Notes: generated from the sequence alone by a model not told the origin. Positions 32,944 through 63,563 are shown, numbered from the stretch's first letter. The stretch is 64,000 bases of DNA from Myxococcota bacterium (GCA_965223705.1 OZ245015.1:1472001-1536000); one strand, 5' to 3'. Numbers and translations: made by a program.

Positions 32944-32959
32944 GGGTCTTCCTTCGGGG

Positions 32960-34096: not shown

Positions 34097-34195
34097 ACCA
34101 ATCGCTGCCCGTTCGTTCGTAGGGTTGGTCCGGGATTCGCCCGGGGTCGTATCATCGTTTCGGAGGCGGTCCCCCGTCAATCGCATTCCTCGATT

Positions 34196-35275: not shown

Positions 35276-35375
35276 TGCCGGTCTCCTCGGGGCTCACCGG
35301 CCCCGGTCGCTAGATACAGTGCGGGGCGCGGAGCATCGCTCCGCGCCCCGTGTTCTTGGCGCGAGTTGGCTCAGC

Positions 35376-44493: not shown

Positions 44494-44880
44494 GGGCAGC
44501 GGGACCCGCGATGGCCGTGCGACGTGTCGAGTACTTCGTGACATCCGTTGGACGGCTTTGTACTCCAGTTCGGATGACTTCTCTACCCGCCTGACGCTCT
44601 TCTCACGGACCGGCAAGTCGAGCGCGGTCTTTCCGGGTGCTTGCCGACGCTCGACCCCTTTTCTGCACGTCACCCTGCACTCCCGGTTCGATGCAGATAG
44701 GAATCTAAACCGCCGAAAAATAATCGAAATTCTTGTTTTTCCCCAGGGGATTCAAGATTCATGCGCGAATTCTTCCGGGTGGTGCATCAAGCGCGGGTCG
44801 GTGGGACCGATGAGGGAAAGAGGCGCATTTCTCCCGACGCTGGGAGCGGGTGAAGTTCGCACGCGAAATGAGGTCTTTTC

Positions 44881-46215
44881 TTGTCGGGTCGCTCCCACAA
44901 CCGCCGTCGAAGAACCGTTTCCGCCCGAGACCGCTGGTTTGCGGGAGCGGCGGTGCTCGCGTTGTTCTTCTGCGCGAACGCGCTGGCGCGCGATGCGAGC
45001 TTCGGAACCTGGGATGGGGAGGAGCTCGAGCCCCACGACGTCCATCGAGCGATCAATCAAGCCGAGTGGGCGGCGATGCTGCTCGAAGCGCTCGGCTTGG
45101 CCGACGCTCTGCCCGAGGACCACGATGCGGAGGACCTTTTCTCGCTTCTCTGCGCAAAGCGGGCGCCGCGGAGGGCCCGGGCCGACGCGGGAATCCCCGC
45201 GTCGGGGGCACCGGACGTTTCGATTTTTGAACCGCGATCCGCCCCGAACCAGGGTCTCCGCTGGGTTGCGAAGGTCCCGACGACGGCGCTCTACGCGCTC
45301 TCGGTGACGGGCAGGGGCGCCGCGAACTGGAGCATCGATCGGCGACCGGTCGGGAGAATGGACCCGACCGCACTCGGTCGGGATGTATCGCGTCGATTGA
45401 TGGCGCTGCCTCGCGGTTTTCACGAAGTGGAAGCGAGCGCCTTCCGCGGGCAGGTCGAGACGCTTTCGCTCGTGCCGTACCGAAACCTCTGCATCGCACC
45501 GGCGGGTGGCTGGCGCGCATCTGCACCGCTTACGTACGGAGCGAAGGCGCGATCGCTCGTGCGAGCGTTCGGGATCGAAGACCAACTGCCGCACGCCGAC
45601 GAACCGGTGTTGATCGAAGGCGAGGCGTTTTCCGACGCATCGACGGGTGCGGTGGTCAGCGACCGCAACCTCGGCGCCATCGCCTCGGCCGACCGCTGGG
45701 GAAGCGCCGGCACCGGCACCGCGACGTTCGCCTACCGGCTGGTGCTCGAGGAACCGGCCTTAGTCAGCATCGCCGCCCGGGTTCACGGGGCCGAGCGTCA
45801 ACTCTGGAGTCTCGACGACCACTTCGTCGCCTCGGTAGCACCCCCGCCCGAGGCGCTCTCGTTCGGTTGGATGAAGATCTTCACGCTGCCGCTCCCCTCC
45901 GGTGAGCACCGGCTGCGCGCACAACTTCCGCGAGGCGCGGGGATCGACGTGATCCGGGTTCTGCCGAGGCGCGCATCGGATCGGGATTATCTGAACCTTC
46001 TGGAGAGCATGGGCTTCTCCGAAGGCGCACCGGGAGAAACCGTCTCACTACGAGGCGCGGAGAGCAATCTTTCGCATCCCGCGTTTCGGCCGCTGACGAA
46101 CGATCTCCTGGTTCGGTCTTTCTCCGGAACCGCGCGGGCGATTCGCGTGTTGCAGGAAGACAGCCGCCGCCACTTCGAACGCCCCCTGTCTCCTGTCGTG
46201 CCGTCGGAACTCTGA
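44881..46215 (+). CDS. Secreted hypothetical protein with internal duplication; first gene of polysaccharide locus
   Basis: Signal peptide ending ANALA; two similar modules (WSIDR..LPRGFHEV / WSLDD..LPSGEHRL); TGATG coupling to the next gene. Confidence 0.7.
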   Translation: MSGRSHNRRRRTVSARDRWFAGAAVLALFFCANALARDASFGTWDGEELEPHDVHRAINQAEWAAMLLEALGLADALPEDHDAEDLFSLLCAKRAPRRARADAGIPASGAPDVSIFEPRSAPNQGLRWVAKVPTTALYALSVTGRGAANWSIDRRPVGRMDPTALGRDVSRRLMALPRGFHEVEASAFRGQVETLSLVPYRNLCIAPAGGWRASAPLTYGAKARSLVRAFGIEDQLPHADEPVLIEGEAFSDASTGAVVSDRNLGAIASADRWGSAGTGTATFAYRLVLEEPALVSIAARVHGAERQLWSLDDHFVASVAPPPEALSFGWMKIFTLPLPSGEHRLRAQLPRGAGIDVIRVLPRRASDRDYLNLLESMGFSEGAPGETVSLRGAESNLSHPAFRPLTNDLLVRSFSGTARAIRVLQEDSRRHFERPLSPVVPSEL

Positions 46216-47387
46216 TGCGCGCTTCCACCGTTGCGATCGGTGCGGTTTTTCTCGCCTTCCCCGTAGCCGCGTACGGTGAAGGGGACCCGGAAAAGTTTCG
46301 CGTCGGCGCCAGGGTCCGGACCACGGCGGTCTACGACGACAACTTCGAGAACAACGATCAGAAACTCGATGACCTGGGCTACTGGATCGAGCCTCTCATC
46401 GAAGCCGAGTACCGGCGCCGCTCCATCCGTCTCCGCACGGAGCTCGGCGGCGACGTGCGTATCCACCCGCAGCACAGCGACGACAACGACGGGTTCGTCC
46501 ACGCGGTGGGGGAACTCGATTGGAGACTCGGGCGCGGACTGACCTTCAAGTTGTCCGATGCCTTCGTCCCGAGCCCTCTGGAACTCGGTCAGCCGTCGGA
46601 CGATGTCGGAAACCTCGGTCAAACGAACCGCGCGGAAGCGGAGCTCCGCTACGAGCGCGAGCTGGGGCAACGGCGCAGCGTCTTGTTCGGCGTCCGCGCT
46701 TCGCGCTTCGACACCGAAGGATTCGAAGCGACGCTCGATACCGACGGGGACGGCGCGGCCGAACTCGATCGCGATTTTCGCGCGGACTACTGGCAGGCAG
46801 ATACGTACTTGGAACTGCAGCAGCGATTGGGTCGCAAGCACCGGCTGTACGTGCGGGGCGAGTTGCGGGAAAGGCGATTCGACGACTTCGAGGACGCGGA
46901 CTTCGACGAAGTGTTCGGACTGGTCGGCATGAAAGGTCGGTTGGGAAAGCGCATCCGTTGGGGCGCCGCGTTGGGCTACGGGACTCTCAACTACGATCAG
47001 GGCGATCGCGACGGTCGCATGTTGGGCAACGCCAACCTCGAGTACGCGTTTGGCGCCGGCTACACGCTCGACGCGTCCGTCAGCCGTCGGCTGACCAGCG
47101 ACGCGGCGTTCTCCGATCACCGCGAAACGACCTACCGGGCATCGCTCGAGAAGCGGCTCGGCGCTCGCACTCGGGTCGAGCTCGGCAGCTTCTTGACGAG
47201 CTTTCGTAACAGCGTCACCGGAGGCGGAGACAACCGCGTCTTTGGTGTCGATCTCGAGATACGGCGTCAACTCTGGCGCCGTTTCGAAGGCGCCCTCATC
47301 GGACAGCATTTCAAGAACGCCGGCGATCAAGGCGCCGACGACTTCAGGAAGAACCGTGTTTTTGTCGAACTCACTTATCGCTACTAG
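46215..47387 (+). CDS. Outer-membrane beta-barrel of polysaccharide export (EpsX/WzpB-like)
   Basis: Signal peptide, YDDN near N-terminus, alternating beta strands, C-terminal VFVELTYRY; adjacent to an OPX gene. Confidence 0.8.
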   Translation: MRASTVAIGAVFLAFPVAAYGEGDPEKFRVGARVRTTAVYDDNFENNDQKLDDLGYWIEPLIEAEYRRRSIRLRTELGGDVRIHPQHSDDNDGFVHAVGELDWRLGRGLTFKLSDAFVPSPLELGQPSDDVGNLGQTNRAEAELRYERELGQRRSVLFGVRASRFDTEGFEATLDTDGDGAAELDRDFRADYWQADTYLELQQRLGRKHRLYVRGELRERRFDDFEDADFDEVFGLVGMKGRLGKRIRWGAALGYGTLNYDQGDRDGRMLGNANLEYAFGAGYTLDASVSRRLTSDAAFSDHRETTYRASLEKRLGARTRVELGSFLTSFRNSVTGGGDNRVFGVDLEIRRQLWRRFEGALIGQHFKNAGDQGADDFRKNRVFVELTYRY

Positions 47388-48237
47388 CCGCGTTGCGATC
47401 GGCTGCCTCTTGCTCTTCGCGGCAGGGATCGCGGGGGCGACGGACTACCGAATCCGCCCGGGCGATCTACTGGAGATCACCGTCTGGCGAGAGCCCGACC
47501 TGTCGGGCACCCACCGCGTCGGCGCCGACGGCGCTCTGCAGCACGTATTGGTCGGCGCGGTCCCCGTGGAAGGTGCCAGCCTGAGCGAGGCCGGCGCCTT
47601 GATCTCCGAGCGACTGGAGCGCGAATTCCTCCGCGAGGCGCGCGTGGCGATCACGCTCGTCGAATCGACGCATCGGCAGGCATCGGTCCTCGGCGACGTG
47701 CCGGCCCCCGGTCGTTACCCCGTCGACGAAGCGACGCACGTCCTCGATCTGTTGCTCGCCGCCTCGGTTGTTCACGGTGCGGGCGGAACGCTGCTTCGCT
47801 TCGAAGCGGCCCCGGACTCGGGAGCGGTCACGGAACCGACGGAGCGATTGCCCGTCGACGTCGCGGCCCTGCTCCAAGGGCGCTCTTTCGAAGACAACCA
47901 TCGCGTCTTCCCCGGCGACGTTCTCGTCGTGAGCGCCGCACCGGGCGAGGTCAGCGCCGGCCCGCAGCGTCGAGAGCCGGTTCGCGTCGTCGGAGCGGTG
48001 GAGTCGCCCGGGGGATTCGAGCTCGAGCAGGCCAGCACCCTCCTCGACGCCGTGCTCGCGGCGGGCGGACTCGCCGAGTATGCGTCGGGAAACCGGGCAC
48101 GTCTGGTGCGGGGCACGGGTGAGTCGCGCACCGAAACGCGCGTGCGCTTGCGCGATCTTCTGAAAGGGCGAGGCGCCCAAGAGAACCTCGCGCTCGAACC
48201 CGGAGACCTGTTGGTTGTTCCGGAGAGCTTCTTCTAG
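47362..48237 (+). CDS. Polysaccharide export OPX/Wza-family protein (Poly_export + 2 SLBB); start approximate
   Basis: YRIRPGDLLEITVW..DLS...V..DG, VLGDV..PG.Y, VVGAVESPG, LEPGDLLVVPESFF. Confidence 0.88.
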   Translation: MSNSLIATSRVAIGCLLLFAAGIAGATDYRIRPGDLLEITVWREPDLSGTHRVGADGALQHVLVGAVPVEGASLSEAGALISERLEREFLREARVAITLVESTHRQASVLGDVPAPGRYPVDEATHVLDLLLAASVVHGAGGTLLRFEAAPDSGAVTEPTERLPVDVAALLQGRSFEDNHRVFPGDVLVVSAAPGEVSAGPQRREPVRVVGAVESPGGFELEQASTLLDAVLAAGGLAEYASGNRARLVRGTGESRTETRVRLRDLLKGRGAQENLALEPGDLLVVPESFF

Positions 48238-48239
48238 CC

Positions 48240-50072
48240 ATGCTCGGACGCGAAGAGGGGAACGCCGAAGACGCGCGGTTGTCGGATTACGTCGCTTTTT
48301 TGCGGCGCCGGTTCCGCACCGCACTCGGCGTCTGCGCCGGCTTCATGGCGGTCGCGTTTTTCTGGAACGGCAGCCTGCCCGAGGTCTACGAGTCGAGTGC
48401 GCGCGTCGTGATTGGCTCCGCAACCCGCGGGTTCTTTAGCGACACCACCAATCCGATCGAGAGCTACTTGTTCGAGCGTCGCTCTTTCGAAACGCAGCTC
48501 GAGGTCATCGCGAGCGAACCCGTCGCGACCCTCGCGGCGATCGACCTCGGTTGGGTCGCGGAGGATGCGCCCCTCGAGGCGCGGCAACACGCGGCCGGAC
48601 AAGTTCGCGGCGCTCTCTCCGTGCGTCATCTTCGCGACACCCGAATCGCGGTCATCGCGGCGCGCGATTCGAACCCGGCCCGGGCCCGGAACGTGGCAAA
48701 CGCTGTTGCGCGCGCCTACATCGCTTTTTCTCAGCAGGAAGGGCAGGAGGCCCGTTTGCGTTCTGCCGCTTGGTTGACCGAGGAGCTCGACGAGATTCGC
48801 GGTCGATTGCGCACGCGTTCCGAGGAGCTCGTCGCCGCACCGCCAGCGGTGAGCGCCGCACCCGGGCAGGCGGCTCGCGGCCAATCGGAACGGCTCACGA
48901 CGGCGTTGGGCGCGGCGGAGCTCGACTTGGTCGAGTTGCTGCAGCGCTATCGCGAGGGACACCCGCGCGTCGTCGAAGCGCGAGCGCGCGTCGCGCGTCT
49001 GCGCGGAAAGGCCGCGCCGCGCGTGGCGGAAGCGGACCAGGACGCGGCGACGCGCGCGAGACTGCTACAGCGGGACATCGAGCTCGATCATGAGATGTAC
49101 GACGTTCTCCTCAAGAAGCTGAAAGAGATCGACGTATCGGGCTCGATCGGCGAGGCGAATCTCCGAATTCTCGAATCCGCGCGCATGAGCTCCGCACCCA
49201 TCGCGCCGCGGACGACGCGCAACTTGGCCGTCGCTCTTCTGCTCTCGCTTTGCGCCGCGGTCGCCACGGCGTTCTGCATCGACAATCTCGACCGAAGCGT
49301 CGGAACGCCCGAAGAAATCAGACGCTTCTTGGGACTTCCCACCTTGGGCGTCGTCACCCGGCTCGCGCAGCACTCGGGCAGGGCGGGCGCGACCGGCACG
49401 AGCCCCGGCGGCGAGATGTTCCGGACCCTGCGGACGAACTTGCGTTTCAGCCACGTCGATGCCCCGCGTCGGGTCGTTCTCGTGACGAGCGCGGGGCCCG
49501 CGGAGGGCAAGTCGACGGTCATTGCGAACCTCGGTCGGTCGTTGGCAGCGAGCGGGCGCCGCACCTTGTTGATCGATACGGACCTTCGCAAGCCGTCATT
49601 GCATCGCGCCTTCGAGGTCGGACGCACCCCCGGCTTGGTCGATGTCCTGGCGGGCGACGCGTCGGTTACGGACGCCCTTCGCACCACGGAAACGGACGGC
49701 TTGGCACTCTTGACCTGCGGTCCGCGTCCTGCGAACCCGGCCGAACTCATCGAGTCTCGGAAGCTCCAAGAGCTCGTCGCGCAGCTGCGGGAGTCCTTTG
49801 ACTACGTGCTCCTCGACTCGCCGCCTTCGGGCGGACTCATCGATGCGAGCTTGCTGTCGGTACTGGCCGACGGAGTCATCTTCGTCGTCGAACCCCGACG
49901 TTTTGATTCGCGCATCTTGCGCGGCGCCCTGCGTCAGCTCGAGCGGGGCGGAGCGCGCATCTACGGAGCGGTCCTCAACAAGGCGGAGCGCGACGACAAC
50001 GCGTCGGTCTACGGCTACTACGAGTACGGAGAGCCGGCTGAAGTCGTCGCCGCGCCGGTCTCGACGCCGTGA
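48240..50072 (+). CDS. Wzc-like polysaccharide co-polymerase / BY-kinase
   Basis: Two TMs flanking a coiled region; Walker A GPAEGKS, IDTDLRKP, LLDSPP; Tyr cluster VYGYYEY. Confidence 0.92.
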   Translation: MLGREEGNAEDARLSDYVAFLRRRFRTALGVCAGFMAVAFFWNGSLPEVYESSARVVIGSATRGFFSDTTNPIESYLFERRSFETQLEVIASEPVATLAAIDLGWVAEDAPLEARQHAAGQVRGALSVRHLRDTRIAVIAARDSNPARARNVANAVARAYIAFSQQEGQEARLRSAAWLTEELDEIRGRLRTRSEELVAAPPAVSAAPGQAARGQSERLTTALGAAELDLVELLQRYREGHPRVVEARARVARLRGKAAPRVAEADQDAATRARLLQRDIELDHEMYDVLLKKLKEIDVSGSIGEANLRILESARMSSAPIAPRTTRNLAVALLLSLCAAVATAFCIDNLDRSVGTPEEIRRFLGLPTLGVVTRLAQHSGRAGATGTSPGGEMFRTLRTNLRFSHVDAPRRVVLVTSAGPAEGKSTVIANLGRSLAASGRRTLLIDTDLRKPSLHRAFEVGRTPGLVDVLAGDASVTDALRTTETDGLALLTCGPRPANPAELIESRKLQELVAQLRESFDYVLLDSPPSGGLIDASLLSVLADGVIFVVEPRRFDSRILRGALRQLERGGARIYGAVLNKAERDDNASVYGYYEYGEPAEVVAAPVSTP

Positions 50073-51868
50073 GACACCTCGCGCTGCCGCTCGCTCTGTT
50101 GGCTTTGGTCGCGACGGCCTTGGTGGGCTATGGCGGTACCACGCCCTGGGCCGCGGCTCTGGCACACCTCCTGATTGCACTGACGGTTCTCGTCTTCGCG
50201 GTTGCTACACGCCGAACCGGCTCGATCAGCGCCTACGTGCTGGTGGGGTCATGGATCGGGCTCGGGGCGATGTCGCTCTCCATCGGAGACTCGGTCGACC
50301 CCGGTCTCGATGCCTTGGGCGCCTTGGTGGCTTCTGCGAGCGTGTTCTTGCTCGCCGAACGCGTCCGCGGTCGCCGCGCGGAGCGCTGGCTTGCGACTGG
50401 AATCGCGAGCCTCGCCGCCGTCGTCTCGGTGTGGGCGATCGTGCGGGTGCCGGCGGACGGCGATGCCCTCGGGCCTTTCGGAAACGCGAACCACCTGGCG
50501 TCCTGGATGCTGCTGCCGGGAGCCCTCGCGCTCGCCGCGTTTCTCGACTCCGACATCCGGAGGCGGGGCCGCCGAGAGTCGGGTTTCCTTTGGTTTCTCT
50601 TGTGCGGCGCAGCCGCTGCCGCCGTCGCGGTGACCGGTTCTCTCGGCGGGGCGATCGCGGGGGCGGTGGCCGCGCTGGTTGCGGTGGGAGGTCACCGGTT
50701 CGTCCGGAACGCGGAGATCCGAAAGGCCGCCGGACAACTCCCCGTGGCGAGGCTTCCGCGGATCGCCTCGCTTTCGCTCCTCGCAGCCTACGTGGCGCTC
50801 GCCGGAGCTCTGACCGTCGGTTCGTCACTCTTCCCCGACGGCATCTCCGTAAAATCGGTGGGAAGCGAGTCGTCCGTGGGGATGCGTTGGGCGGTTTACG
50901 GAGCGGCTTCGCGAGCCGGTCTCGAGCACGCGCCGCTCGGCTCCGGCCTGGGAAGCTTCGCGGAAGCCTTCGCCGCCGAACGGCCGCGAGGACTCCCCTA
51001 CGGCGTTCGGTTCGCGCACAACGAGCCGCTTCACGGATGGGTGGAGCTCGGAGTGCCCTTCCTGCTTCTCGCGCTCGTGTCTCTCACCATCATGGCGAGG
51101 CGTCTTCCCGCGGCGCTCGCGCTCGCTCCCTCGCGCTTTCGCATCGGAGCGATGGCGGGGCTCGCCGGCCTCGCGGTGCACAGTTTGTTCGACTTCCCGC
51201 TCCACGTGCCGGCAATCGCTTGCGTGGCGGCGATCGGCTTGGGTTTTGCCTGGCGTCTCCCCCGAGAAGGAACCGGCCTGCGGCCGCAGTGGTCGAGTGC
51301 TGCGCTGGCGAGTCTGGGCGTGCTCGGGATCGGTTTGTCCGGCACCCAGCTCGTCGCGAGCGCAAACGAGGAGCTGGCCGTTCGGGCGGAAGCGGCCGGC
51401 GACTTTCAGGCCGCGCTCTCCCACGTCGAACGCGGCCTGCGCGCGCGCCCCTGGCGGCCCTCGCTGCGGCAACTGCGCGCCGACAACCTGGAATACGCGG
51501 CCGTCTTCGATGGCGCAAAACTCGGAGACTCGTCCGTTGCCGACGCGCGCGCAGACGCCATCGCGGTAGCGCCGAGGCGCGCGAATTTCCGCCTGCAGTT
51601 CGCTCGGGCTCTCGCGGAGGCAGGTGACGCGGACCGCGCGCGCGAAGAAATCGCGGCGGCGAAGCGCCTCGACCCCGCATCTCCGGCGCCACTGCTCGCC
51701 GCCGCGAATCTCGCTTTTCGCAGCGGAGACCTGTCCCAGGCGGAAGAGCAGATCCGGGCGGCGATCGCCCTCCACCCGGGCTTGGCTTCGGAACTCGCAC
51801 GTCACGCTCCGGTATTGTGGGGACGCGTGCACGCGGTGTCCCTGGCCGAACCGGGGACGAAGAAATGA
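50069..51868 (+). CDS. O-antigen ligase/Wzy_C family protein with C-terminal TPR repeats
   Basis: GPFGNANH, GSGLGSF, AHNEPL...ELG, HSLFDFPLH; TPR-like tail. Confidence 0.85.
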   Translation: MRHLALPLALLALVATALVGYGGTTPWAAALAHLLIALTVLVFAVATRRTGSISAYVLVGSWIGLGAMSLSIGDSVDPGLDALGALVASASVFLLAERVRGRRAERWLATGIASLAAVVSVWAIVRVPADGDALGPFGNANHLASWMLLPGALALAAFLDSDIRRRGRRESGFLWFLLCGAAAAAVAVTGSLGGAIAGAVAALVAVGGHRFVRNAEIRKAAGQLPVARLPRIASLSLLAAYVALAGALTVGSSLFPDGISVKSVGSESSVGMRWAVYGAASRAGLEHAPLGSGLGSFAEAFAAERPRGLPYGVRFAHNEPLHGWVELGVPFLLLALVSLTIMARRLPAALALAPSRFRIGAMAGLAGLAVHSLFDFPLHVPAIACVAAIGLGFAWRLPREGTGLRPQWSSAALASLGVLGIGLSGTQLVASANEELAVRAEAAGDFQAALSHVERGLRARPWRPSLRQLRADNLEYAAVFDGAKLGDSSVADARADAIAVAPRRANFRLQFARALAEAGDADRAREEIAAAKRLDPASPAPLLAAANLAFRSGDLSQAEEQIRAAIALHPGLASELARHAPVLWGRVHAVSLAEPGTKK

Positions 51869-53145
51869 TCCGGCCGAACGCGAACACGCAGTGGGTCCTG
51901 GGGGCGGCGTGCGGCGCAGCACTCGCAGGCGTGTTGGCCCTCGCCCCGCTCGGGCTTTCGGTCGCCCTCGCGGCCTTCTCTCTGCTGTTCGTTCCCTCGC
52001 TACTCCTGCTCGCGCGCGAGCCCTTCGAGCGACGGGTTTTCTGCGCGGCCGTGGGCGCACGTGCCCTCTTGGCGGTCGTGATCTACTACAGCGGAGTTTC
52101 GGACTTCTTTGCCCTCGATCCGGTGCGGTACGAGCGTCTCGGCGCCGAGCTCGCTGCCTACTGGTCGGGCTCGCAGAGCGCGCCGCCGCAAATCTACGGT
52201 CGCGTCGGCTACTACGCGTGGAATGCCGCCATCTATTTCGTGTTTGGCCACGAGCCCCTCGCGCCGACACTCATCAACGCCGTGATCGGCGGATGGTGCG
52301 TGATCTTCGCGAGCCGTGTCGCCGGAGTGCTCTCGGGAGAACGGGCGGCTCGCTACACGGCGTTGGTCTGCGCGTTCTGGCCATCGCTCATGCTGTGGTC
52401 GAGTCTCAATCTCAAAGACGCGCAGGCGATCTTTCTGATTCTGGCGGCGATCCTGGCCGTCCAAAAGCTCTCCGCCCGGCCCTTGGCAGCCGGGGCCTCG
52501 GCCTTTGCAGCGATCGCACTACTCAGTCAGATCCGCGGCTACATGGCGCTGGTCTTGCTCCTCTCGATGTCGCTCGGCGTTCTGATACCGCGACTCGCGC
52601 GGGTGTCTCTCCTTGTGGTGCCCGCCGCGGTCGTCGCGCTCGCGTTGCTGCCGAGCTTGGAGCTCTTTCAGGAGCTGGCTCAGGAAGTCACGCTCGAGCA
52701 GCTTTCGAGAACGCGCGGGAAACTCGCGGCCGGCGCGTCGGCGTATTTCGCGGACGCCGATCTGTCGACTCCGCGCGCGGCGCTGTCGTTCTTGCCGATC
52801 GGACTCACGTACTTCTTTCTAGCCCCGATGCCGTGGCATTTGCTCAGCGGGCGTCAGTTGATGGTCCTCCCCGAAATGCTCGCGTGGTACGGACTGTTGA
52901 TTTGGATTGCGCGGGGCGCCATTTCGCTGCTGCGCACGCGATCCAGGGAGACGCTGCCGGTTCTCCTGTTCGTCGCCACGGCGTCGGTCTCTTACGCGAT
53001 GGTGGAGGGGAACCTCGGCACGGTGTACCGACATCGCGCGCAGGTCGTGGTTCCGTTGCTGGTCTTCGCGGCCCACGCGCTCGCCGAAGCAAAGGAAGAA
53101 CGTCGACGCCCGCTGCCCCTGGCGCCGGCGGTGAGTCCCGCATGA
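51865..53145 (+). CDS. Multi-pass membrane protein, putative GT-C glycosyltransferase or Wzy-type polymerase
   Basis: Roughly 10 TMs; D...Y after the early TMs, WPS...WSSLNLKD, NLGTVYRHR. Confidence 0.7.
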   Translation: MIRPNANTQWVLGAACGAALAGVLALAPLGLSVALAAFSLLFVPSLLLLAREPFERRVFCAAVGARALLAVVIYYSGVSDFFALDPVRYERLGAELAAYWSGSQSAPPQIYGRVGYYAWNAAIYFVFGHEPLAPTLINAVIGGWCVIFASRVAGVLSGERAARYTALVCAFWPSLMLWSSLNLKDAQAIFLILAAILAVQKLSARPLAAGASAFAAIALLSQIRGYMALVLLLSMSLGVLIPRLARVSLLVVPAAVVALALLPSLELFQELAQEVTLEQLSRTRGKLAAGASAYFADADLSTPRAALSFLPIGLTYFFLAPMPWHLLSGRQLMVLPEMLAWYGLLIWIARGAISLLRTRSRETLPVLLFVATASVSYAMVEGNLGTVYRHRAQVVVPLLVFAAHALAEAKEERRRPLPLAPAVSPA

Positions 53146-54332: not shown

Positions 54333-55639
54333 GGGCACCTCGCGTCTTGTTGGCGGCCTACTACTTTCCGCCCGTCGCGGGGGGCGGGGTCACGCGCACC
54401 CTCGCTTTGATCGATTCCCTGCGTCGGCACGGCGCCCACCCGTCGGTAGTGACCGTCGACGACGCGGCTTGGACGCGCGACCCGACCCTGTGCGCGGGAA
54501 TCTCCGAGGTGCCCGTCGTTCGCGTCCCGAATCCCGATTGGGGTCGCGTCCGTCGCCGTGGAACGGTGTCGGCTGGACGACCCGGAAGAGGGCGTCTGCG
54601 CAAAGTGCTCGTCCCCGATCTCCACGTCGGGTGGAGTGTGCTCGCCGCTGCGGTCGTCGCCGGGATGGCACGCGCCAACGCCTTCGACGTCGTCTACACC
54701 ACGGCGCCGCCGTACTCCGCACACGTCATCGGGTACGTCGCGCGTCGTTTGGGTAAGCGTTGGGTCGCGGATTTCCGCGACGCTTGGATCGATGCGCCGG
54801 ACCGACAAGGGCTCGGCCCGCGGCGACTCGCTGTTGAGAAACGGCTCGAAGCCGCCGTGTTTCGGCACGCCGATCGGACGATCTTCGCGTCGGCAGGTGC
54901 TCGGCGCCGCGCGATCGCGCGCCATCCGAACCTCGCGAACCGCAGCGAGGTAACGCTCACGGGCTTTGACCCCCGTCGCTACGTAGGCGCGGCCGATCCG
55001 GTTCCGACGCGCGCCGAACGCCGCTACCGGTTGGTGCACGCCGGCAACGTCGGACTCGATGCGAAGGCCTCGAGGGCGACCGCATTCCTCGACGTCTTGG
55101 CGACGTGGCGGGAGCGGCATCCCGAAGTAGAGACGTCCGTCGACGTGACGTTTCTCGCAGCGGAGGCGTGGTTCCGCGGTGAAATCAACCGTCGGGAGCT
55201 CCAGCGGTTCGTACGCATCGAACCCGCCTGCTCGCGCGGAGACCTCGCAGCGAGGCTCGAGCAGGCGCATCGATGTTTGCACATCGCGCCTCCGGGACCG
55301 CGTGGTGCCGACCCGATTCCGGGAAAGCTTTTCGACGCCCTGGGCTCCCGCCGTCGCTTGTTGTCCTTCGCCGACGGGGGCGCGCTGTCGGAGCTCTTGC
55401 AGCAATACGACTGGGGCGAGGCTTTCGCCCCAAGCGACACCGAGTCGCTGATCCACTTCCTCGAATCGGAACGCCGGGGGGTGCTCGCGGGGACTTACGT
55501 TCCCGTCCTGACCGACGCGGCTCGCTCGTCGTGCACGAACGAAGTGGCTCTCGAGGGCCTCGTTCGGGCGATTCTCCGAGAAGAGCGCGAGGAACGATCC
55601 CGGCAAACGGCGTTCGCGCCTTGGGGAGCGACGCCATGA
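54329..55639 (+). CDS. Glycosyltransferase (GT4-like)
   Basis: AYYFPPVAGGGV.R, TAPPYSAH, ADFRDAW, PGKLFDAL. Confidence 0.85.
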   Translation: MRAPRVLLAAYYFPPVAGGGVTRTLALIDSLRRHGAHPSVVTVDDAAWTRDPTLCAGISEVPVVRVPNPDWGRVRRRGTVSAGRPGRGRLRKVLVPDLHVGWSVLAAAVVAGMARANAFDVVYTTAPPYSAHVIGYVARRLGKRWVADFRDAWIDAPDRQGLGPRRLAVEKRLEAAVFRHADRTIFASAGARRRAIARHPNLANRSEVTLTGFDPRRYVGAADPVPTRAERRYRLVHAGNVGLDAKASRATAFLDVLATWRERHPEVETSVDVTFLAAEAWFRGEINRRELQRFVRIEPACSRGDLAARLEQAHRCLHIAPPGPRGADPIPGKLFDALGSRRRLLSFADGGALSELLQQYDWGEAFAPSDTESLIHFLESERRGVLAGTYVPVLTDAARSSCTNEVALEGLVRAILREEREERSRQTAFAPWGATP

Positions 55640-56517
55640 GAGTGTCTGTCAGTCTCGTGACGCACCGCAGTCGATCGCATATCGACGCTTGCCTCGCTGC
55701 ACTCCGTACGCAGCGCGAAGTCGCAGAGATTCTCGTGGTGGACAGCGGCAGCGACGATGGTACGACGCAACACTTGCGGAGAACCCATCGCGATGTGTGG
55801 GTCGACGCGTCCGCCGAGAACGTCGGTTACGCGGCTGGACACAACCGCAACTACCGGCGCGCCACCGGGGACGCGTTCCTCGCGCTGAACCCGGACGTCG
55901 TCATGGATCTGAACTGTCTCGAACGACTCTGCGGCGCTCTGGCCGATCGAGCCGATATCGGCTCGGTCGGGCCCAAACTACTGCGCGCTCGTACGAACAG
56001 TCTGGTCGATTCCGCGGGGATCGAACGCGATGTCTTGCGCGGAAAGTTCCGCGACCGCGGTGCGGGCGAGGCATCGAGTCGATATCGCCAACGCGAAGAA
56101 GTGTTCGGGATCTGCGGGGCCGCCGCGCTCTACCGGAGGGAGGCGCTCGAAGAGGTTTCCGGGAAAGAGCGCGCTCCGTTCGCCGAATCATTTTTCATGT
56201 ACTACGAGGATGTCGACCTGGCGTGGCGTCTTCGCCGGGCTGGGTGGAAGAACGTTTTCGTACCGACCGCGCGCGCACACCACCGACGCGGGGGCGCAGG
56301 GGCGGCGTCGGCGTTTACGGAATACCACCTCGTGCGAAACCGCCTCTGGGTTTCCGTGCGAAATGCGAGCTTGGCCGAATTCGCGTGCGAAGCGCCGGGT
56401 CTTCTCTTGTTCGAAGCCGCGAAGTGCGTGCAGGCCACGCGCCGAGGCCATCTGCGTCGTGCGCTGAGGGATCAGTGGCGCGGCATGGCTCGGGCGTGGT
56501 CGGAGAGGGCGCCGTGA
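55636..56517 (+). CDS. Glycosyltransferase family 2
   Basis: VVDSGSDDGT, NVGYAAGHN, LNPD, FFMYYEDVDLAWR. Confidence 0.92.
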   Translation: MRVSVSLVTHRSRSHIDACLAALRTQREVAEILVVDSGSDDGTTQHLRRTHRDVWVDASAENVGYAAGHNRNYRRATGDAFLALNPDVVMDLNCLERLCGALADRADIGSVGPKLLRARTNSLVDSAGIERDVLRGKFRDRGAGEASSRYRQREEVFGICGAAALYRREALEEVSGKERAPFAESFFMYYEDVDLAWRLRRAGWKNVFVPTARAHHRRGGAGAASAFTEYHLVRNRLWVSVRNASLAEFACEAPGLLLFEAAKCVQATRRGHLRRALRDQWRGMARAWSERAP

Positions 56518-57692
56518 AGATCGCGCACGTCGCCAACACCGATTACTTCTGCGGTTTCCTGCTGCGGGATCAGTTGAGGAAGCTGCGCGACTCCGGGCAC
56601 GAGGTCCACGCCGTGAGCGGCCCCGGCCCGCTTCTCGATGCCCTCGGTGCCGACGGGATTCGCGTGCACACCGTCGAGAACGCGCGCCGGATCGATCCCG
56701 GGCGAGACCTGCGAACGCTCTTCTCCTACGTGCGTTTGTTCCGTCGAGAGGCGTTTGATCTGGTCCACACCCACAACCCGAAGGTGAACGTCTTGGCGAG
56801 TGCCGCCGCCCGCATCGCGGGAGTGCCGCGAGTGGTGTCTACGCTTCACGGTCTCTACTCCCACGAGGGGCAGCGGGCAGCCGTGCGACGCCTCTGGCGG
56901 GGATTCGAGTCGGTGGGCGCACGGTTCGCAGATCTCGTCCTGTGTCAAAGCGCCGAAGACGTCCGCACGGCGCGTTGGCGCCGCATCGTTCCGGACGAGA
57001 GCCTGCGACGGTTGGGCAACGGAGTCGATCTTCGACGATTCGACGCGCGCCGCTTTCGCTCGGAGGACAGCGCCGCGCTCCGCCGCCGCTTCGGCATCGC
57101 GGCGGACGAACGGGTCGTGGGTTTTGTCGGTCGTCTCGTGCGCGAAAAGGGCGTAGAGGATCTACTCGCCGCTTGCCGTCGTCTGCCTCGCACGCGTGTG
57201 TTGTTGGTCGGACCGGACGAGCGCGGAGAAAAAAGCGACGCGTTGGATCCCCGCGCGTTGCGAGCGGCTCCCGGCGTCTCGTGGCTCGGCGTGCGAAACG
57301 ACATGCCGTCGGTGTTCGCGACGTTCGACGCCTTTGTCTTGCCGTCCTACCGGGAGGGGTTCCCCCGCTCGCTGGTCGAGAGCGCAGCGATGGGAATCCC
57401 CGCGATTGCGACGGACATTCGCGGTTGCCGCGAAGTGGTCGTGCCGGGACAGACCGGTTGGCTCGTTCCGGCGCGGGCGCCCCACGTCTTGCGCAGCGCG
57501 CTCGAGGGGCTGCTGCGCGATGCTTCGCGTCGCCGACGATTCGGCGAAGCGGCCCGTCGCCGAGCGGAAGCGAACTTCGACGAGCACGCCGTTTTCGAGC
57601 GGGTCGCGCGGGCTTACGCGGAGCTCCCGCTCCGCCGTCCTGCTGCTGCGCCGCGCGTCCCTGCGCGTGCAGAGAGCCCGGCAACCCGCTGA
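56514..57692 (+). CDS. Glycosyltransferase family 4
   Basis: VHTHNPK, GNGVDL, GRLVREKG, LPSYREGFPRSLVESAAMG. Confidence 0.93.
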   Translation: MKIAHVANTDYFCGFLLRDQLRKLRDSGHEVHAVSGPGPLLDALGADGIRVHTVENARRIDPGRDLRTLFSYVRLFRREAFDLVHTHNPKVNVLASAAARIAGVPRVVSTLHGLYSHEGQRAAVRRLWRGFESVGARFADLVLCQSAEDVRTARWRRIVPDESLRRLGNGVDLRRFDARRFRSEDSAALRRRFGIAADERVVGFVGRLVREKGVEDLLAACRRLPRTRVLLVGPDERGEKSDALDPRALRAAPGVSWLGVRNDMPSVFATFDAFVLPSYREGFPRSLVESAAMGIPAIATDIRGCREVVVPGQTGWLVPARAPHVLRSALEGLLRDASRRRRFGEAARRRAEANFDEHAVFERVARAYAELPLRRPAAAPRVPARAESPATR

Positions 57693-57786
57693 ATCCGCGG
57701 ACCATTTCCCTAAAGCCGAGGGCGGGTCCCTCCGAAGAAACCAGGAGCGGCGCGTCCCTGGTTGTCCGGTGTTCGACTACGGGTGA

Positions 57787-58995
57787 GTGCGCGCGGAAGG
57801 AGGGGATTTCGTGTTCGTGATTCCCAGGCAATCCCCGCCGGCGAGACGCTGGCTAGCGCACCTCGTTCGTGCCTCGGCGGGTGCGATTCGCCCCGGCGAC
57901 CTGTTCGACGACGTGCTCCCGTTCGACACGGCCGAAGCCGTTTCTCTGGCGCGACGTCACCGGGTCGGTCCGCTGATCCACCGCGGGTTGGCCGATGGGA
58001 GAATCGCCGATTCGCTGCCCGACGCGTTCGCTCGGGCTTGTCGCGAACTGTATTTCGCGACGCTCCGCAAAAACATCGTCGCGCTCGAGACCGCCGGGCC
58101 GGTTCTCTCGCACTTGGCGGCCGCCGGCATCGCCAGCGCACCCCTCAAGGGTTGGGCGCTGCTCACCGGCGCCGAGCCGGTCTACGCCGACGCGGGCATG
58201 CGGCCGATGGACGACCTCGATCTCATCGTTCCGCGCGCGGAAGTCGACCGCGCGACGCGCATCATCGAAGCCCACGACTTCCGAGCCATCGCGCCTCGCG
58301 GTCCTCGGCTCGCTGCGGGGCACGAGATCGCGTTTCACCGGCAAGTCGCAGGCGTCGATCTTTTCGTCGAACTCCACTTTGCATGGGCCGGTAGCGAAAG
58401 CTTGATGCGGCAGTACGCGATGGGCGGGGAGACGTTCCTCGAGGCCTTCTGCTCCGATTGCGGACCGGGAGAACCCCGGCAACCGACACGGATCGGACAC
58501 CTTCTGTTCGTGGCGGTGCACGCGGCGCGACACGCGTTTCGCCGCTGGCTCTGGTTGCTCGACCTCCACCGGATTGTCGACGGGGTGGCTGGTGAGCCGG
58601 CACTGGATTGGTCCGAGGTCGTTCGCACGGCGAGCGAGCACCGGTTGCGGCGTCCGCTGTACGCGGGCCTCGCGGCGGCGCGCGAGCTCCTTCGGACGCC
58701 GGTGCCGAAGGAAGTGCTCGCAGAGCTCGCGCCGGGACCGGTGCGACGCCGCCTTCTGCACAGCAGCTTGCGGCCGAGTGCGGCGCCGAGCGAAGCCCAG
58801 CGTCGCGATCGCGTGGCGAAGCTTCTCTTGGGGGAGTCGTGGTGGGATGTGGCGCGAACCGCGGCCTGGGCGTCGAACCCGGGTCGCTCCTGGTACGAGA
58901 AACGCGGGGAGCGCTCGGATCTCGCTCAGCGGATCGCCAACCCGGTACGAATGCTTCGCGGAGCGCCTCGGCCGAATCTGGAGCCGCGCAAGTGA
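57787..58995 (+). CDS. Nucleotidyltransferase family protein (NTP_transf_5 type)
   Basis: PLKG.AL...Y.D.GMRPMDDLDLIV, VELH, HAARH, WLLDL. Confidence 0.85.
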   Translation: MRAEGGDFVFVIPRQSPPARRWLAHLVRASAGAIRPGDLFDDVLPFDTAEAVSLARRHRVGPLIHRGLADGRIADSLPDAFARACRELYFATLRKNIVALETAGPVLSHLAAAGIASAPLKGWALLTGAEPVYADAGMRPMDDLDLIVPRAEVDRATRIIEAHDFRAIAPRGPRLAAGHEIAFHRQVAGVDLFVELHFAWAGSESLMRQYAMGGETFLEAFCSDCGPGEPRQPTRIGHLLFVAVHAARHAFRRWLWLLDLHRIVDGVAGEPALDWSEVVRTASEHRLRRPLYAGLAAARELLRTPVPKEVLAELAPGPVRRRLLHSSLRPSAAPSEAQRRDRVAKLLLGESWWDVARTAAWASNPGRSWYEKRGERSDLAQRIANPVRMLRGAPRPNLEPRK

Positions 58996-59273
58996 CCGAG
59001 AGCGCTTGCGCGCGAAGGGTCGAGGGGGTGATCTCTCGGACGATCGCCGGAGAGACGGTTCTCGTTCCGATTCACAGTCGCGCGGAAGAGCTCGGGCTCT
59101 TCACACTCAATTCCGTCGCCAGTTTTATCTGGGAACGGATGGACGGGCGCCCTCTTCGCGACATCGCATCCGAGCTGGCGGCCACCTACGACGTCAGCAT
59201 CGAAGAAGCGACGACGGACCTCACGCACTTTGCACGAGAACTCGTTGCCGCCCGCTGCGCCGAGGTGTGTTGA
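58992..59273 (+). CDS. PqqD-family RiPP recognition element (RRE)
   Basis: 93 aa; RTIAGETVLVP..LFTLNSVASFIWERMDG...IASEL...YDV..EEA..DL..F...L; overlaps both neighbours. Confidence 0.92.
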   Translation: MTESACARRVEGVISRTIAGETVLVPIHSRAEELGLFTLNSVASFIWERMDGRPLRDIASELAATYDVSIEEATTDLTHFARELVAARCAEVC

Positions 59274-60433
59274 TGGTTGCGCCCGAAGTGAACCTCCGAA
59301 GCGTCCGAAGCGATGCCCTCACGCGCGACTACAAGCGGCGGATCGTCGAGGATCGCGTTCCCGTCTCGGCGTCCATCGAGCTCACGTACCGTTGCAACCT
59401 GCACTGCGGCCACTGCTACTGCCCAAAGGGAGAGCGTTCACAGGAACTATCGACGCAGGAGATCTCGGATCTCATCGACGAGATGGCCGACATGGGGACG
59501 CTCTTTCTGCTGATGACGGGCGGGGACCCGCTGTTGCGGAAGGATTTCCCCGAGCTTTATCGCCACGCCAAGGAACGCGGGCTTCTCGTCACGGTCTTCA
59601 CAAATGGCACGTTGATCGATGAAGACATCGCCGACCTGTTTCGCGAACTCCCTCCGTACCTGATCGAAATCTCGCTCTATGGGCTCACTCGCAAGACCTA
59701 TGAGACCGTCGTCGCCGTTCGCGGTTCGTACGATCGCTGTCTCGCCGGGATCACGCGAGTTCTTCGCGATGGACACCGGCTCGCGCTGAAATGCCCGGCG
59801 ACGTCCGACAATGCCCACGAAATTCCCGAGCTCGCGCGTTTTGCCAAGGATCTGGGAGTCGACTTCCGCTACGACCCAGTGATCCTCGCGACGATGGAGG
59901 GCAAGACGCACACACACGCCATGCGACTCACGGCGGAGCAGGTCGTCGCCCTCGAAGCGGCCGACGTCGAGAAGGACCGGGCGTGGACGAGCTACATGGA
60001 GGAAGCCCCTGCGGTTCCCGAGAACGATCGGCTGTTCTCGTGTGGCGCCGGGAAGAACTCGTTCCACATCGATCCCTACGGAAACGTCCAAGTGTGTCTG
60101 ATGGTGAAAAATTTCCCCCGCAACGTGCGAGAACGCTCGCTTCGCGAGATCTACTACCAGGAATTCCCCGAGATCCTCGCGATCAAACGCAAGCCGGAAA
60201 CGAAATGCGGCTCGTGTAGCCACCGGGCGACGTGCAACAACTGTCCGGGGATGGCGCTCTGGGAAACCCAGACCAACGACGGGCACGTCGAGTTCGCTTG
60301 CCAGCTATCGCAAGTTCGGGCGGAAACGTACGGCCCGCCAGAAGCTTCGAGCGGCGCGTGCGGTTCCGGTGGTTGCGGTAGCGGCGGCTGTGGAGCCGCG
60401 GAATCGCTGCTTCAGATCGGGGGCATCCGATGA
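59273..60433 (+). CDS. Radical SAM/SPASM-domain peptide maturase
   Basis: ELTYRCNLHCGHC (CxxxCxxC), TGGDPLLR, TNG; SPASM CGAG...IDPYG.V..C...CxxCx5CxxC-x18-C. Confidence 0.93.
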   Translation: MVAPEVNLRSVRSDALTRDYKRRIVEDRVPVSASIELTYRCNLHCGHCYCPKGERSQELSTQEISDLIDEMADMGTLFLLMTGGDPLLRKDFPELYRHAKERGLLVTVFTNGTLIDEDIADLFRELPPYLIEISLYGLTRKTYETVVAVRGSYDRCLAGITRVLRDGHRLALKCPATSDNAHEIPELARFAKDLGVDFRYDPVILATMEGKTHTHAMRLTAEQVVALEAADVEKDRAWTSYMEEAPAVPENDRLFSCGAGKNSFHIDPYGNVQVCLMVKNFPRNVRERSLREIYYQEFPEILAIKRKPETKCGSCSHRATCNNCPGMALWETQTNDGHVEFACQLSQVRAETYGPPEASSGACGSGGCGSGGCGAAESLLQIGGIR

Positions 60434-60615
60434 CCGAGGAGAGCGGACGGAAACCCTACGAGGCGCCGGAGATTCGCAGAGTTGAACTCGACGTGATGGC
60501 GAGTTTCCCGGACAACTGCAAGATGGATGTCGGGACCGGGGGGTTTGGGGGTGCCGCGGGTTCATGCCAGCAGTCGAGCCTACCGACGGTGATGTGCATG
60601 AACATCGGCTCGTAG
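60430..60615 (+). CDS. Putative RiPP precursor peptide (61 aa)
   Basis: Leader KPYEAPEI (YxxPxL-type RRE motif); Gly-rich core with Cys30/46/56 ending GS; ATGA overlap with the rSAM stop. Confidence 0.85.
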   Translation: MTEESGRKPYEAPEIRRVELDVMASFPDNCKMDVGTGGFGGAAGSCQQSSLPTVMCMNIGS

Positions 60616-60620
60616 CCGAC

Positions 60621-61505
60621 GTGCGCGTTCTCGAGGTCGCGGGTGTGCGCATCGCGGTCGAAGTACCCCGGGAGTTGCCTTGGACGTGGCCGGACGGTCC
60701 GCTGACGCGATTCGCCGGCGCGGACGCAGGCCGCGCCGACGTGCGCGTCGCCGTTCGAATCGGAAAGCCCGTCGTCAGTGCCAGGGCGCTGTCGTACGAC
60801 TCGGGCGGCGGGATCTTTGACGTCGTCGCAAGTCGCGACACTCTGGAGATCGTTCTGCGCATCCGCGGCGAGATCCAGCGCGTGGCGCGATTCGACCGCG
60901 ACTTTCGCGATGGCGAAGTCACGCTCGCCCCGGATTCCTTCTACGCGACCGAGAACTACTACCCCTTGGCCTACCCCCTCGACGAATGGATCTTCTTCCA
61001 CCGCATCTTGCGGGAGAGCGGGTTGCTGGTTCACGCCTGCGCGGCGGAGCGGTCCGGGCGCGCGTTGTTGTACTGCGGTCGCTCCGGCGCCGGGAAGAGC
61101 ACCACCGCGAAGTTGCTGCGGCGCTACGCCGACGCTTCCGTGCTCTCAGACGATCGCATCGCGCTGCGGGTCGAAAAAGACGGAATCTGGGCGCACGGCA
61201 CGCCCTGGCACGGCGAAGCGCCGCTCTCCGAACCGCGCGCCGCGAAGCTCGTCGCGATTCACTGGATCGAGCACGCCGCACGCCTCGTACACTCGCCGAT
61301 GCGGGGGGCCCGTGCTGCGGTGGCTCTGCTGGGCAACGCTTTTCTCCCCGCCTACGACGACAAGGGCGCCGCCGCCGGTCTTGCAGTCGCAGAGGAAATC
61401 GTCGCGCGGGTACCCCTCGCGAAGCTCGGCTTCCCGAAAGATCGCCGCATGGTCGATCACGCACAGTCCCTCTGGTCGAACGCCGGTGGGAGCGCGCTGG
61501 CGTGA
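60621..61505 (+). CDS. HPr kinase/PEPCK-fold P-loop kinase (RiPP-associated)
   Basis: LLVHACA, GRSGAGKSTT, LSDDRIAL, GTPWHG. Confidence 0.85.
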   Translation: MRVLEVAGVRIAVEVPRELPWTWPDGPLTRFAGADAGRADVRVAVRIGKPVVSARALSYDSGGGIFDVVASRDTLEIVLRIRGEIQRVARFDRDFRDGEVTLAPDSFYATENYYPLAYPLDEWIFFHRILRESGLLVHACAAERSGRALLYCGRSGAGKSTTAKLLRRYADASVLSDDRIALRVEKDGIWAHGTPWHGEAPLSEPRAAKLVAIHWIEHAARLVHSPMRGARAAVALLGNAFLPAYDDKGAAAGLAVAEEIVARVPLAKLGFPKDRRMVDHAQSLWSNAGGSALA

Positions 61506-61948
61506 GCGACGCTCCGCCGGCTTTTGCTGCACACGAGCTCGCCTTGACCGAGGCTCTTCGAAAAGGAGCCGTGTGGATCCGACCGTGCGGTGTGTCGATG
61601 CGCCCCACACTCGTCGAAGGCGATTCTGTCGAGCTCGCGCTCTTACCGGCGCGCTGGGGCGCGATCGCTCTGGTGTCCCACCGAGGAAGGTTGTGGCTCC
61701 ACCGGTTGGTATGGCGCCGCGGCGGGCGGTGGTTGTTGTGGGGCGACGCGCGAGCGCGTCCCGAGGGCTGGGTGGAAGAACGGCAGATCCTCGCGATCGC
61801 CGTGGCGCGCCGCCGCGATGACGGACGGGCGCTCGACCTCGTGCGCGGTCCGGCGCGCCTTCTGGGGCTCTGCGCCGCAGCCGTCCGACGCCCTTTGCGC
61901 CGTCTACGCGCCCACGCGCAGCGAGCCACGCCGCTCCGCGCGCCCTAG
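61502..61948 (+). CDS. S24/S26-family peptidase, probable leader peptidase
   Basis: GVSMRPTL..GD, LHRLV, WGD; no N-terminal TM; GTGA overlap with the kinase. Confidence 0.8.
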   Translation: MSDAPPAFAAHELALTEALRKGAVWIRPCGVSMRPTLVEGDSVELALLPARWGAIALVSHRGRLWLHRLVWRRGGRWLLWGDARARPEGWVEERQILAIAVARRRDDGRALDLVRGPARLLGLCAAAVRRPLRRLRAHAQRATPLRAP

Positions 61949-63402: not shown

Positions 63403-63563
63403 GCCTCCAATTTCGGCGCCGTACAGGAAAACCTTGAGTCCCGAGATTTCGAGAAAACCCGCTGCAGACGCGAACTTCACGCCGCAATCACCGCTTCGTG
63501 ATACATTGGACAAGCTGTATCGGACCCGGTGTGCTTGTTCTGAGCGAGCTCGAGGGGAGCGGG

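Follow-up and report, generated by a model that had tools for sequence, protein, structure and literature searches.

Sixteen genes in a 64,000-nt window of Myxococcota DNA (GCA_965223705.1 OZ245015.1:1472001-1536000; the window is the whole stretch analysed, and its genome is called G000 below) span positions 44881-61948 and combine a surface-polysaccharide operon with a cassette for a peptide made on the ribosome and modified after translation (RiPP). This locus is a real, conserved and uncharacterised system of the phosphopeptide RiPP kind, and we tentatively propose that its product is a conjugate of peptide and glycan at the surface, where a sugar chain would be carried by the terminal phospho-serine of the peptide. 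A peptide-glycan surface molecule of such a type would be undescribed. The direct basis of the proposal is the gene order, the co-inheritance of both halves, intact catalytic residues and a common promoter motif, and the chemistry is inferred.

All 16 genes lie on the + strand and, as an earlier reading made from the sequence alone (the sequence-only reading) had described, run from export genes through four glycosyltransferases (GTs) to the RiPP genes, an order borne out by gene calls and junctions (Table 1). The glycan half comprises a hypothetical protein, a beta-barrel, Wza, Wzc, a Wzy_C/TPR protein, a GT-C-like membrane protein and the soluble GTs, which are indeed four in number (three GT4, one of them a weak match, and one GT2), while the peptide half consists of an NTP_transf_5 nucleotidyltransferase (NTase), a RiPP recognition element (RRE), a radical SAM/SPASM enzyme, the precursor, an HprK-like kinase and an S26 peptidase. 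At twelve of the 13 computed junctions the genes share 1 or 4 nt or are spaced by 2 nt, and the two remaining junctions, read by eye from the sequence, are an overlap (barrel/wza) and a spacing of 5 nt (precursor/kinase). The 13th computed junction, at 57693-57786 ahead of the NTase, is the sole sizeable gap, previously put at about 95 nt and computed here as 94 nt, or 118 nt if the NTase begins at the GTG at 57811; this start appears more likely, since GGAGG precedes the GTG and the relatives start in the same register. With its Wza, Wzc, Wzy-like membrane transferase and GTs, the operon fits a Wzx/Wzy-dependent polysaccharide set, and neither a priming phosphoglycosyl transferase nor a Wzx was found in it. 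Because the operon lacks both, a phosphopeptide acting in place of the lipid carrier is possible, though not required, as both exist elsewhere in the genome.

Within the clade the two halves are inherited as one unit, which supports the sequence-only reading: their order is kept in relatives, and across the 61 genomes of the order they are found or missed together, the radical SAM gene occurring in five genomes and the GT-C gene in six, with five in common. A single contig holds the whole unit in each of G009, G052 and G046, and in G044 it is split over two contig ends; the opposite-strand ABC-2 exporter genes co-travel with it, and the relatives add an AsnB-like gene, grouping with a GATase-bearing protein, between GT2 and GT4. 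Named homologues are Myxococcota. From metagenomes, 21 loci were found and 17 close relatives analysed, some of them near-copies; a GT4 stands immediately 5' of the NTase in 9/9 of the metagenome contigs that reach that far (some again near-copies). The sixth genome with the GT-C gene, G033, is 68% complete and holds a gap-free stretch GT4-NTase-KhpA devoid of peptide genes, its NTase having lost residues that are invariant elsewhere, and no orthologous kinase, radical SAM enzyme or C25 protease (see below) was found in this incomplete genome with its gappy scaffold. It seems to be a single case in which the NTase decays after loss of the peptide. G033 had also been considered as a glycan operon without cassette, which was rejected as an assembly-gap artefact, the rest lying on another part of the scaffold.

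In the precursor, Y10, P13, C30, K31, C46, C56, G60 and S61 are invariant (38 matches, of which 32 were aligned and six fragments or long forms excluded), and whole-precursor identity across the clade is 67-87%. When 80 distant loci (described below) were scanned for precursors with no condition on the C-terminus, 39 leaders were obtained, 35 of which end in Ser (background, 114/1076 genes), with Cys-Lys present in 29 and three Cys in 33. Counting 16 residues from the Tyr, as at the cleavage site of the published LPP system, would place the leader cut after S25; position 3 of the core so predicted is Asp, and the conserved Ser is terminal instead. Without modifications, this 36-residue core would have a monoisotopic mass of 3566.5. 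Three distant loci with several radical SAM genes (L076, L088 and L095) each hold two to four precursor genes with WxxP leaders.

The catalytic residues of the modifying enzymes are invariant in the alignments of relatives: G114, R131, D135 and D137 of the NTase, including the DxD (33-row alignment), ten Cys of the radical SAM enzyme (77 rows), the Walker A motif and an Asp of the kinase (50 rows), and S32, H67 and D82 of the S26 peptidase (54 rows), in which no membrane segment was found. The radical SAM enzyme stays under the cut-off for the best 25 of 77 NCBIfam matches, and in six loci the S26 and NTase domains are fused in one open reading frame (ORF). Its C-terminal tail (window 60360-60400), that of the radical SAM enzyme, is rich in Gly, Ser and Cys, with three extra Cys beyond the part common to distant homologues. 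For the NTase, PF14907 was the only Pfam match at E 0.01, PF00483 not being matched, and its profile gave no sequence match among solved structures. The structure model (pLDDT 86.8) resembles MenT1 (Z 11.3, root-mean-square deviation (rmsd) 3.6, 176 aligned) and ANT(2'')-type nucleotidyltransferases and, compared with FKRP, gave Z 5.1 (rmsd 4.5, 158 aligned); in Foldseek nothing reached E 0.001, and LicC was not among the matches listed.

The following pathway is proposed. The RRE would bind the YxxP leader, as in lasso and LPP systems, whereupon the radical SAM enzyme would cross-link the Cys residues, probably through thioethers, as is expected of its family. The kinase would phosphorylate Ser61, by analogy with paeninodin and pseudomycoidin and in keeping with the conservation of this Ser, and the S26 peptidase would cut after Ser25, in the same register as in LPP. 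In the fifth step, the weakest link, the NTase would add the first sugar to the phosphate, as PsmN may do, or activate the phosphate, thereby replacing a priming transferase. Finally, the four GTs and two membrane transferases would extend or ligate the glycan, and the ABC-2 and Wza/Wzc systems would export the product.

For a wider view of distant homologues, the best 80 of 601 confirmed radical SAM loci were mapped with self-built hidden Markov models; as the simple gene caller misses Arg-rich high-GC genes, marker counts were taken from raw ORFs. Across the 80 loci the RRE was found in 73, the kinase in 72, S26 in 65, the NTase in 29, a C25 protease in 24, any glycan marker in 24 and wza/wzc in 12. 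For the 39 full-length loci, i.e., those of at least 20 kb, neighbours within 10 kb were compared with those in 216 control windows of G000: a glycan marker is present at 16/39 loci vs. 40/216 controls (15/38 without the locus of the window's own clade, p 0.009) and wza/wzc at 9/39 vs. 12/216. Glycan markers are found in 15/29 loci with a local NTase vs. 9/51 without (p 0.002), where, as for the other comparisons, kin are not independent and the p values overstate, to the detriment of our proposal. Of 26 genomes without a local NTase, 25 carry one over the cut-off elsewhere, and in 12 of 20 genomes the best such remote site has glycan genes. In 91 Acidobacteriota genomes an NTase occurs in 21/22 with the radical SAM gene vs. 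37/69 without (tallied by hand, then tested), and its base rate in cassette-less relatives is 9/56. The glycan-adjacent loci are scattered over a quick radical SAM tree (40 rows), with separate glycan linkage in Verrucomicrobiota, Omnitrophota, Aminicenantes, Acidobacteriota, Chloroflexota, and Planctomycetota; in other phyla, the glycan link is thus recurrent, not obligatory. When the 81 singleton neighbours of 220-1200 residues from the 23 unmarked loci were scanned with Pfam, sugar-pathway genes were added at L027 and a lone epimerase at L073, the remaining singletons being housekeeping or unmatched proteins. G000 itself holds a second cassette (C1:4,508,409-4,513,243; L001 14410-19244), composed of NTase, GT2, RRE, kinase and two further GT2 genes, which likewise joins NTase, RRE and kinase to GT2 genes and which we count in favour of the conjugate. 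A separate precursor was not seen in this second cassette and no promoter motif was found ahead of its NTase; the C-terminal tail of its RRE bears a YEPP motif of its own.

Both halves are preceded by the same class of predicted promoter motif, which we call sigma-28-like for its likeness to the FliA consensus; G000 encodes a FliA/WhiG sigma factor over the cut-off, at 2,659,921. The motif in the gap has the consensus T(C/A)AAG-N15/16-CCGA(T/A) in 5/5 genomes and, once the pattern had been fixed on these, was met in 10/10 further contigs (chance occurrence of the relaxed pattern, 5% per 260 nt). Upstream of the C25 genes it is strong and at one fixed distance in 5/6 cases, the G000 gene having a weak variant (9.3 bits). 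The 16-nt-spacer matrix misses 15-nt variants, which precede the first gene of both G000 and G009 and, in G044, the NTase. Genome-wide, the loose pattern is not enriched (221 vs. about 209 expected), in contrast to its position, strand and spacing. The clade motif was met ahead of distant cassettes in only 1/71 RRE, 0/31 NTase and 0/22 C25 upstreams, a scan for sigma-70 promoters and terminators returned chance-level counts with nothing within the gap, and a literature search on the motif gave nothing relevant. Since the same predicted motif stands in the gap and before the operon, the ABC and the C25 genes, the two halves are likely separate transcription units that are nevertheless co-regulated, and the motif set likely constitutes a non-flagellar surface regulon; the sharing gives modest support, because the motif marks a broad gene set. 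About 60 upstream regions on C1 of G000 carry it, with downstream genes that resemble, by eye, pilB, pilT, pilin, TPR or PilZ-type genes. The sequence-only reading had taken independent transcription of the two parts as a sign against a joint pathway: a promoter is indeed predicted in the gap, yet it is of the same class as that before the operon.

The closest published system is LPP (lppA-K-B-S-D-N) of Bacillota, described by Popov et al. 2026 as a kinase/RRE/SpI/NTase module in capsule loci (PMC13381572; this and the other papers are cited here from part of their text). Both share a free-standing RRE, an HprK-like kinase, a SipW-type leader peptidase, an NTP transferase, a YxxP leader with a small residue 16 places from the Tyr, and the setting within polysaccharide loci. 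The present locus differs in its radical SAM/SPASM enzyme and three-Cys core, the conserved Cys pointing to cross-links rather than to the linear polyphosphorylated product of LPP, in the C-terminal position of the conserved Ser (core position 3 for the LPP phospho-Ser), in the leader, where only YxxP and the register match YxxPxVLxHQxIxFETxxS, in having an ABC-2 permease and ATPase instead of an MsbA-like transporter, and in its Gram-negative host and frequent giant C25 partner. LPP and paeninodin clusters were found in capsule loci and up-regulated together with an exopolysaccharide (EPS) gene, and the authors call the role of the LPP module unknown (PMC13381572). "Radical SAM" is absent from the main text of that paper, whose supplements may list clusters linked to such enzymes, and our literature searches, in which most subscription journals were not covered, showed no paper describing the radical SAM cassette among those listed.

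With pseudomycoidin and paeninodin (PsmK, PsmN; PMC6993621) the locus has in common a C-terminal Ser, an HprK-like kinase, a DxD-bearing NTP_transf_5-type enzyme and an RRE, but no lasso cyclase or B2 protease is among the 16 genes, which instead include the radical SAM and S26 enzymes and adjoin four GTs and an export set. The sequence-only reading was right that kinase and nucleotidyltransferase give a glycosylated phospho-Ser there: PsmN and its DxD are required in E. coli for hexose on the phospho-Ser, the authors leaving open, in the part cited, whether PsmN is the transferase (PMC6993621). GTs have also been noted beside lasso clusters (PMC7533575). The further parallel that the sequence-only reading drew, to LicA/LicC activation, fits poorly. 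The proposed pathway does resemble LicA/LicC/LicD and FKRP in a kinase followed by a nucleotidyltransferase-type step and in a phosphodiester on a glycan, whereas by sequence the NTase, unlike LicC, belongs to PF14907 and not PF00483, and the best matches listed for its model are Pol-beta-type, MenT1 and ANT(2'')-type enzymes among them; judged from this model, it appears closer to the transfer step of LicD/FKRP than to activation by LicC. The SynChlorMet cassette (NCBIfam TIGR04248-04251) is a third relative, with a ScmC-like kinase, a ScmD-like PqqD protein and radical SAM/SPASM enzymes; here there is one radical SAM enzyme, NTase, S26 and glycan genes are added, and all scores are far under the cut-offs (ScmC 26/125, ScmD 28/100, ScmE 78/400 and ScmF 68/400 bits). 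The distant loci L074-L099 often hold several radical SAM genes, as in SynChlorMet. To our knowledge, SynChlorMet is defined bioinformatically, and we know of no experimental test of it.

The most frequent partner of the cassette at full-length loci, ahead of glycan genes and overlooked in the sequence-only reading, is a giant C25 protease, present instead of or besides them within 10 kb at 19/39 loci vs. 1/216 controls. Of seven long proteins scanned from the neighbourhood of distant cassettes, one is a pyruvate oxidoreductase and the other six have Peptidase_C25 following variable adhesin-type domains. The His-Cys dyad never varies (20 rows), and the best solved match of the profile is PorU (6za2, E 2e-46), although the PorU model itself stays below its cut-off (NF033707, 224 of 420 bits). 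All five cassette-bearing close genomes have a C25 frame of 1,900-2,100 codons, shorter ones occurring in 5/56 others, and in Acidobacteriota C25 is found in 18/22 genomes with the radical SAM gene vs. 21/69 without. Of the 30 cassette genomes lacking a local C25 gene, 11 have a copy elsewhere and 19 have none that was found in their incomplete assemblies. The G000 gene is remote from the locus (C1:4,444,364-4,450,555; L115 8365-14556) and encodes about 2,020 residues with a signal-like start, a propeller-like N-terminal passenger, a conserved junction domain and an anchor-like tail (Cys, hydrophobic stretch, Arg), which is like a myxobacterial sorting signal. The junction PT-x-V-x-L was matched in 23/28 giants by a looser regular expression and in 0/28 by a strict one. 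No second copy of the junction domain was found in G000, which argues that it has no separate cargo proteins. One acidobacterial genome (G153) has 16 C25 matches and no radical SAM gene of the cassette family at E 1e-70, so that either such giants can multiply where there is no cassette, or its cassette was missed.

A special case of the peptide-glycan conjugate, which we regard as unlikely, would use these giants: the RiPP might be a two-ended covalent linker in a three-part protein-peptide-glycan anchor. The NTase and GTs would attach its C-terminal phospho-Ser to the surface glycan, the nucleophile would be its freed N-terminus or else the conserved Lys by the first Cys, and the PorU-like C25 would capture on it the adhesin part of its own protein of 1,000-3,200 residues, cut near PT-x-V-x-L. 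In type IX secretion, PorU links the C-terminus of a protein to the amine of an amino acid borne on a glycan (PMC7468200, PMC13086638). Like PorU, the G000 giant has a C25 domain with the His-Cys dyad; unlike in PorU, the domain follows a variable passenger in a single fusion protein with a membrane-anchor-like tail, and the amine acceptor, by hypothesis, would be the RiPP instead of a seryl-sugar. If true, this would be a ribosomally made protein-polysaccharide link spread over about ten phyla, the RiPP counterpart of the type IX seryl-sugar acceptor.

Several observations weigh against a peptide joined to polymer. The sequence-only reading had taken cassettes lying mostly away from polysaccharide loci as a sign against it: glycan genes are enriched beside distant homologues, but 22 of the 39 full-length distant loci are without polysaccharide genes within 10 kb, and among full-length loci alone the link between NTase and glycan markers is 10/17 vs. 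6/22 (p 0.059). NTases are common without the radical SAM gene (37/69), which makes the counts of NTases in trans less specific than they look. Three PF02397 priming-transferase genes and a Wzx elsewhere in the genome could serve in trans, another wza locus near C1:2,028,600 likewise shows no priming gene, and the evidence from G033 comes from one gappy scaffold. A separate promoter is predicted for the peptide half, though of the operon's class, and the motif reaches at least 15 bits in 62/3416 gene upstreams (about 2%), pilus-type genes included. In the cited parts of the literature, deletion of lppN had no effect (PMC13381572), PsmN adds just one or two hexoses and may make the substrate for a host GT (PMC6993621), and no in vitro activity is on record for PsmN (PMC11912497). 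The conjugate we favour thus has on its side the unit within the clade, the glycan enrichment and the terminal Ser of distant precursors, and against it the loci apart from glycan genes, the separate promoter and the LicC misfit.

Alternatively, the product would be a small diffusible glyco-phosphopeptide like pseudomycoidin, with zero to two sugars, which would signal for or regulate surface assembly and not be joined to polymer; glycan adjacency would then serve co-regulation and sugar-nucleotide supply. The separate promoter and ABC exporter of the peptide half, the many distant loci apart from glycan genes, the mono- or di-hexose product of PsmN (PMC6993621, as far as cited) and the usual Wza/Wzc/Wzy-like set of the operon agree with such a peptide. 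We nevertheless find it somewhat doubtful, as no sensor or immunity gene lies in the unit and NTases apart from the cassette are often among GT genes (12/20), while the high precursor identity fits a structural or enzyme-bound role equally well. More doubtful still is that the main partner of the peptide is the giant C25 surface protein, which the peptide would activate or inhibit or whose substrate it would be, with the glycan operon a lesser neighbour in the same surface regulon. The frequency of C25 beside full-length loci, its distribution over close genomes and Acidobacteriota, its invariant dyad and the motif at fixed distance before 5/6 C25 genes speak for this; the 19/30 genomes in which it was not found (with the limits of incomplete assemblies), the weak promoter site of the G000 gene and the NTase with its tie to GT genes, which would be left unexplained, speak against it. 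That the adjacency is a frozen accident of one clade, its halves having unrelated jobs, seems highly improbable: the evidence for tight linkage does come mostly from kin, and a promoter lies between the halves, but this explanation is disfavoured because glycan linkage recurs independently in the six other phylum-level groups named above, and LPP and paeninodin clusters have been described with the same pairing (PMC13381572, in part).

Many bacteria have kinase/RRE/NTP_transf_5 modules in their capsule and EPS loci, the modules' role being an open question (PMC13381572, in the part cited). The locus is a compact and well-conserved test case, with a single core of 36 residues and an operon that has four GTs and two membrane transferases but no priming enzyme, and four predicted co-regulated units are at issue, the sortase-like giant protein included. 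If the peptide carries glycan, RiPPs would gain a structural role, NTP_transf_5 would be assigned the function of a transferase that primes on peptide, and there may be a new way of anchoring proteins to glycans outside Bacteroidota.

Table 1. Predicted genes and promoter motifs of the locus (window positions)
Feature	Position	Strand	Basis or remark
Sigma-28-like promoter motif TCAAG-N15-CCGATGA, predicted	44787..44813	+	ahead of first gene; also before the orthologue in four relatives (5/5)
Conserved hypothetical protein, N-terminal hydrophobic stretch	44881..46215	+	without Pfam or PDB match
Outer-membrane beta-barrel, BBP2-like	46215..47387	+	PF10082 E 7e-5, slightly under cut-off; TIGR03016 weak
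Wza-type polysaccharide export protein, start inferred	47356..48237	+	PF02563 and SLBB
Wzc-type co-polymerase / tyrosine autokinase	48240..50072	+	TIGR01007 175 bits vs. cut-off 108
Wzy_C / O-antigen-ligase-like membrane protein, TPR tail; candidate ligase or polymerase of the glycan	50069..51868	+	PF04932 36.8 bits vs. cut-off 31.7
Membrane glycosyltransferase, likely GT-C fold (PMT_2-like)	51865..53145	+	without Pfam match; Atlas 0.99
GT4 glycosyltransferase	53142..54332	+	profile matches
GT4-like glycosyltransferase, weak match	54329..55639	+	PF13439 E 1e-5, under cut-off
GT2 glycosyltransferase	55636..56517	+	Pfam match
GT4 glycosyltransferase, final gene of glycan half	56514..57692	+	Pfam match
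Internal sigma-28-like promoter motif TAAAG-N16-CCGAAGA, predicted	57711..57738	+	inside 94-nt gap; 5/5 genomes
PsmN-family (NTP_transf_5) nucleotidyltransferase with intact DxD; best model matches Pol-beta-type	57787..58995	+	PF14907 127 bits; likely start 57811
PqqD-type RiPP recognition element	58992..59273	+	PF05402
Radical SAM/SPASM maturase, predicted Cys cross-linker	59273..60433	+	PF04055 and PF13186
Precursor, 61 residues	60430..60615	+	YxxP leader, predicted cut after S25, 36-residue core, three Cys, terminal Gly-Ser
HprK-like kinase	60621..61505	+	ScmC and HprK-rel models far under cut-off; HprK 1jb1 E 6e-5
Soluble SipW/SEC11-type S26 leader peptidase	61502..61948	+	profile matches SEC11 at E 1e-14
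ABC-2 permease and ATPase, candidate exporter	61904..63403	-	family matches; kept in 4/4 genome relatives; absent from L192
Sigma-28-like promoter motif facing ABC genes, predicted	63410..63437	-	ABC-oriented in 9/9 related loci, KhpA-oriented in 0/9

No Rfam family was found in window 43000-64000. The first gene of the operon has 19 homology matches, itself counted, and an Atlas score of 0.77, under the reliable range, so that its likeness to SLH and CBM domains is a lead only; for the membrane GT, the top Atlas clusters have PMT_2 in 48-77% of their members. Upstream of the locus, on the - strand, an RND/MMPL-like transporter is clustered with large secreted or outer-membrane proteins (29770-37868), and a 522-residue secreted beta-propeller-like protein (40314-41882) resembles choice-of-anchor and alkaline-phosphatase families, both as judged by eye.

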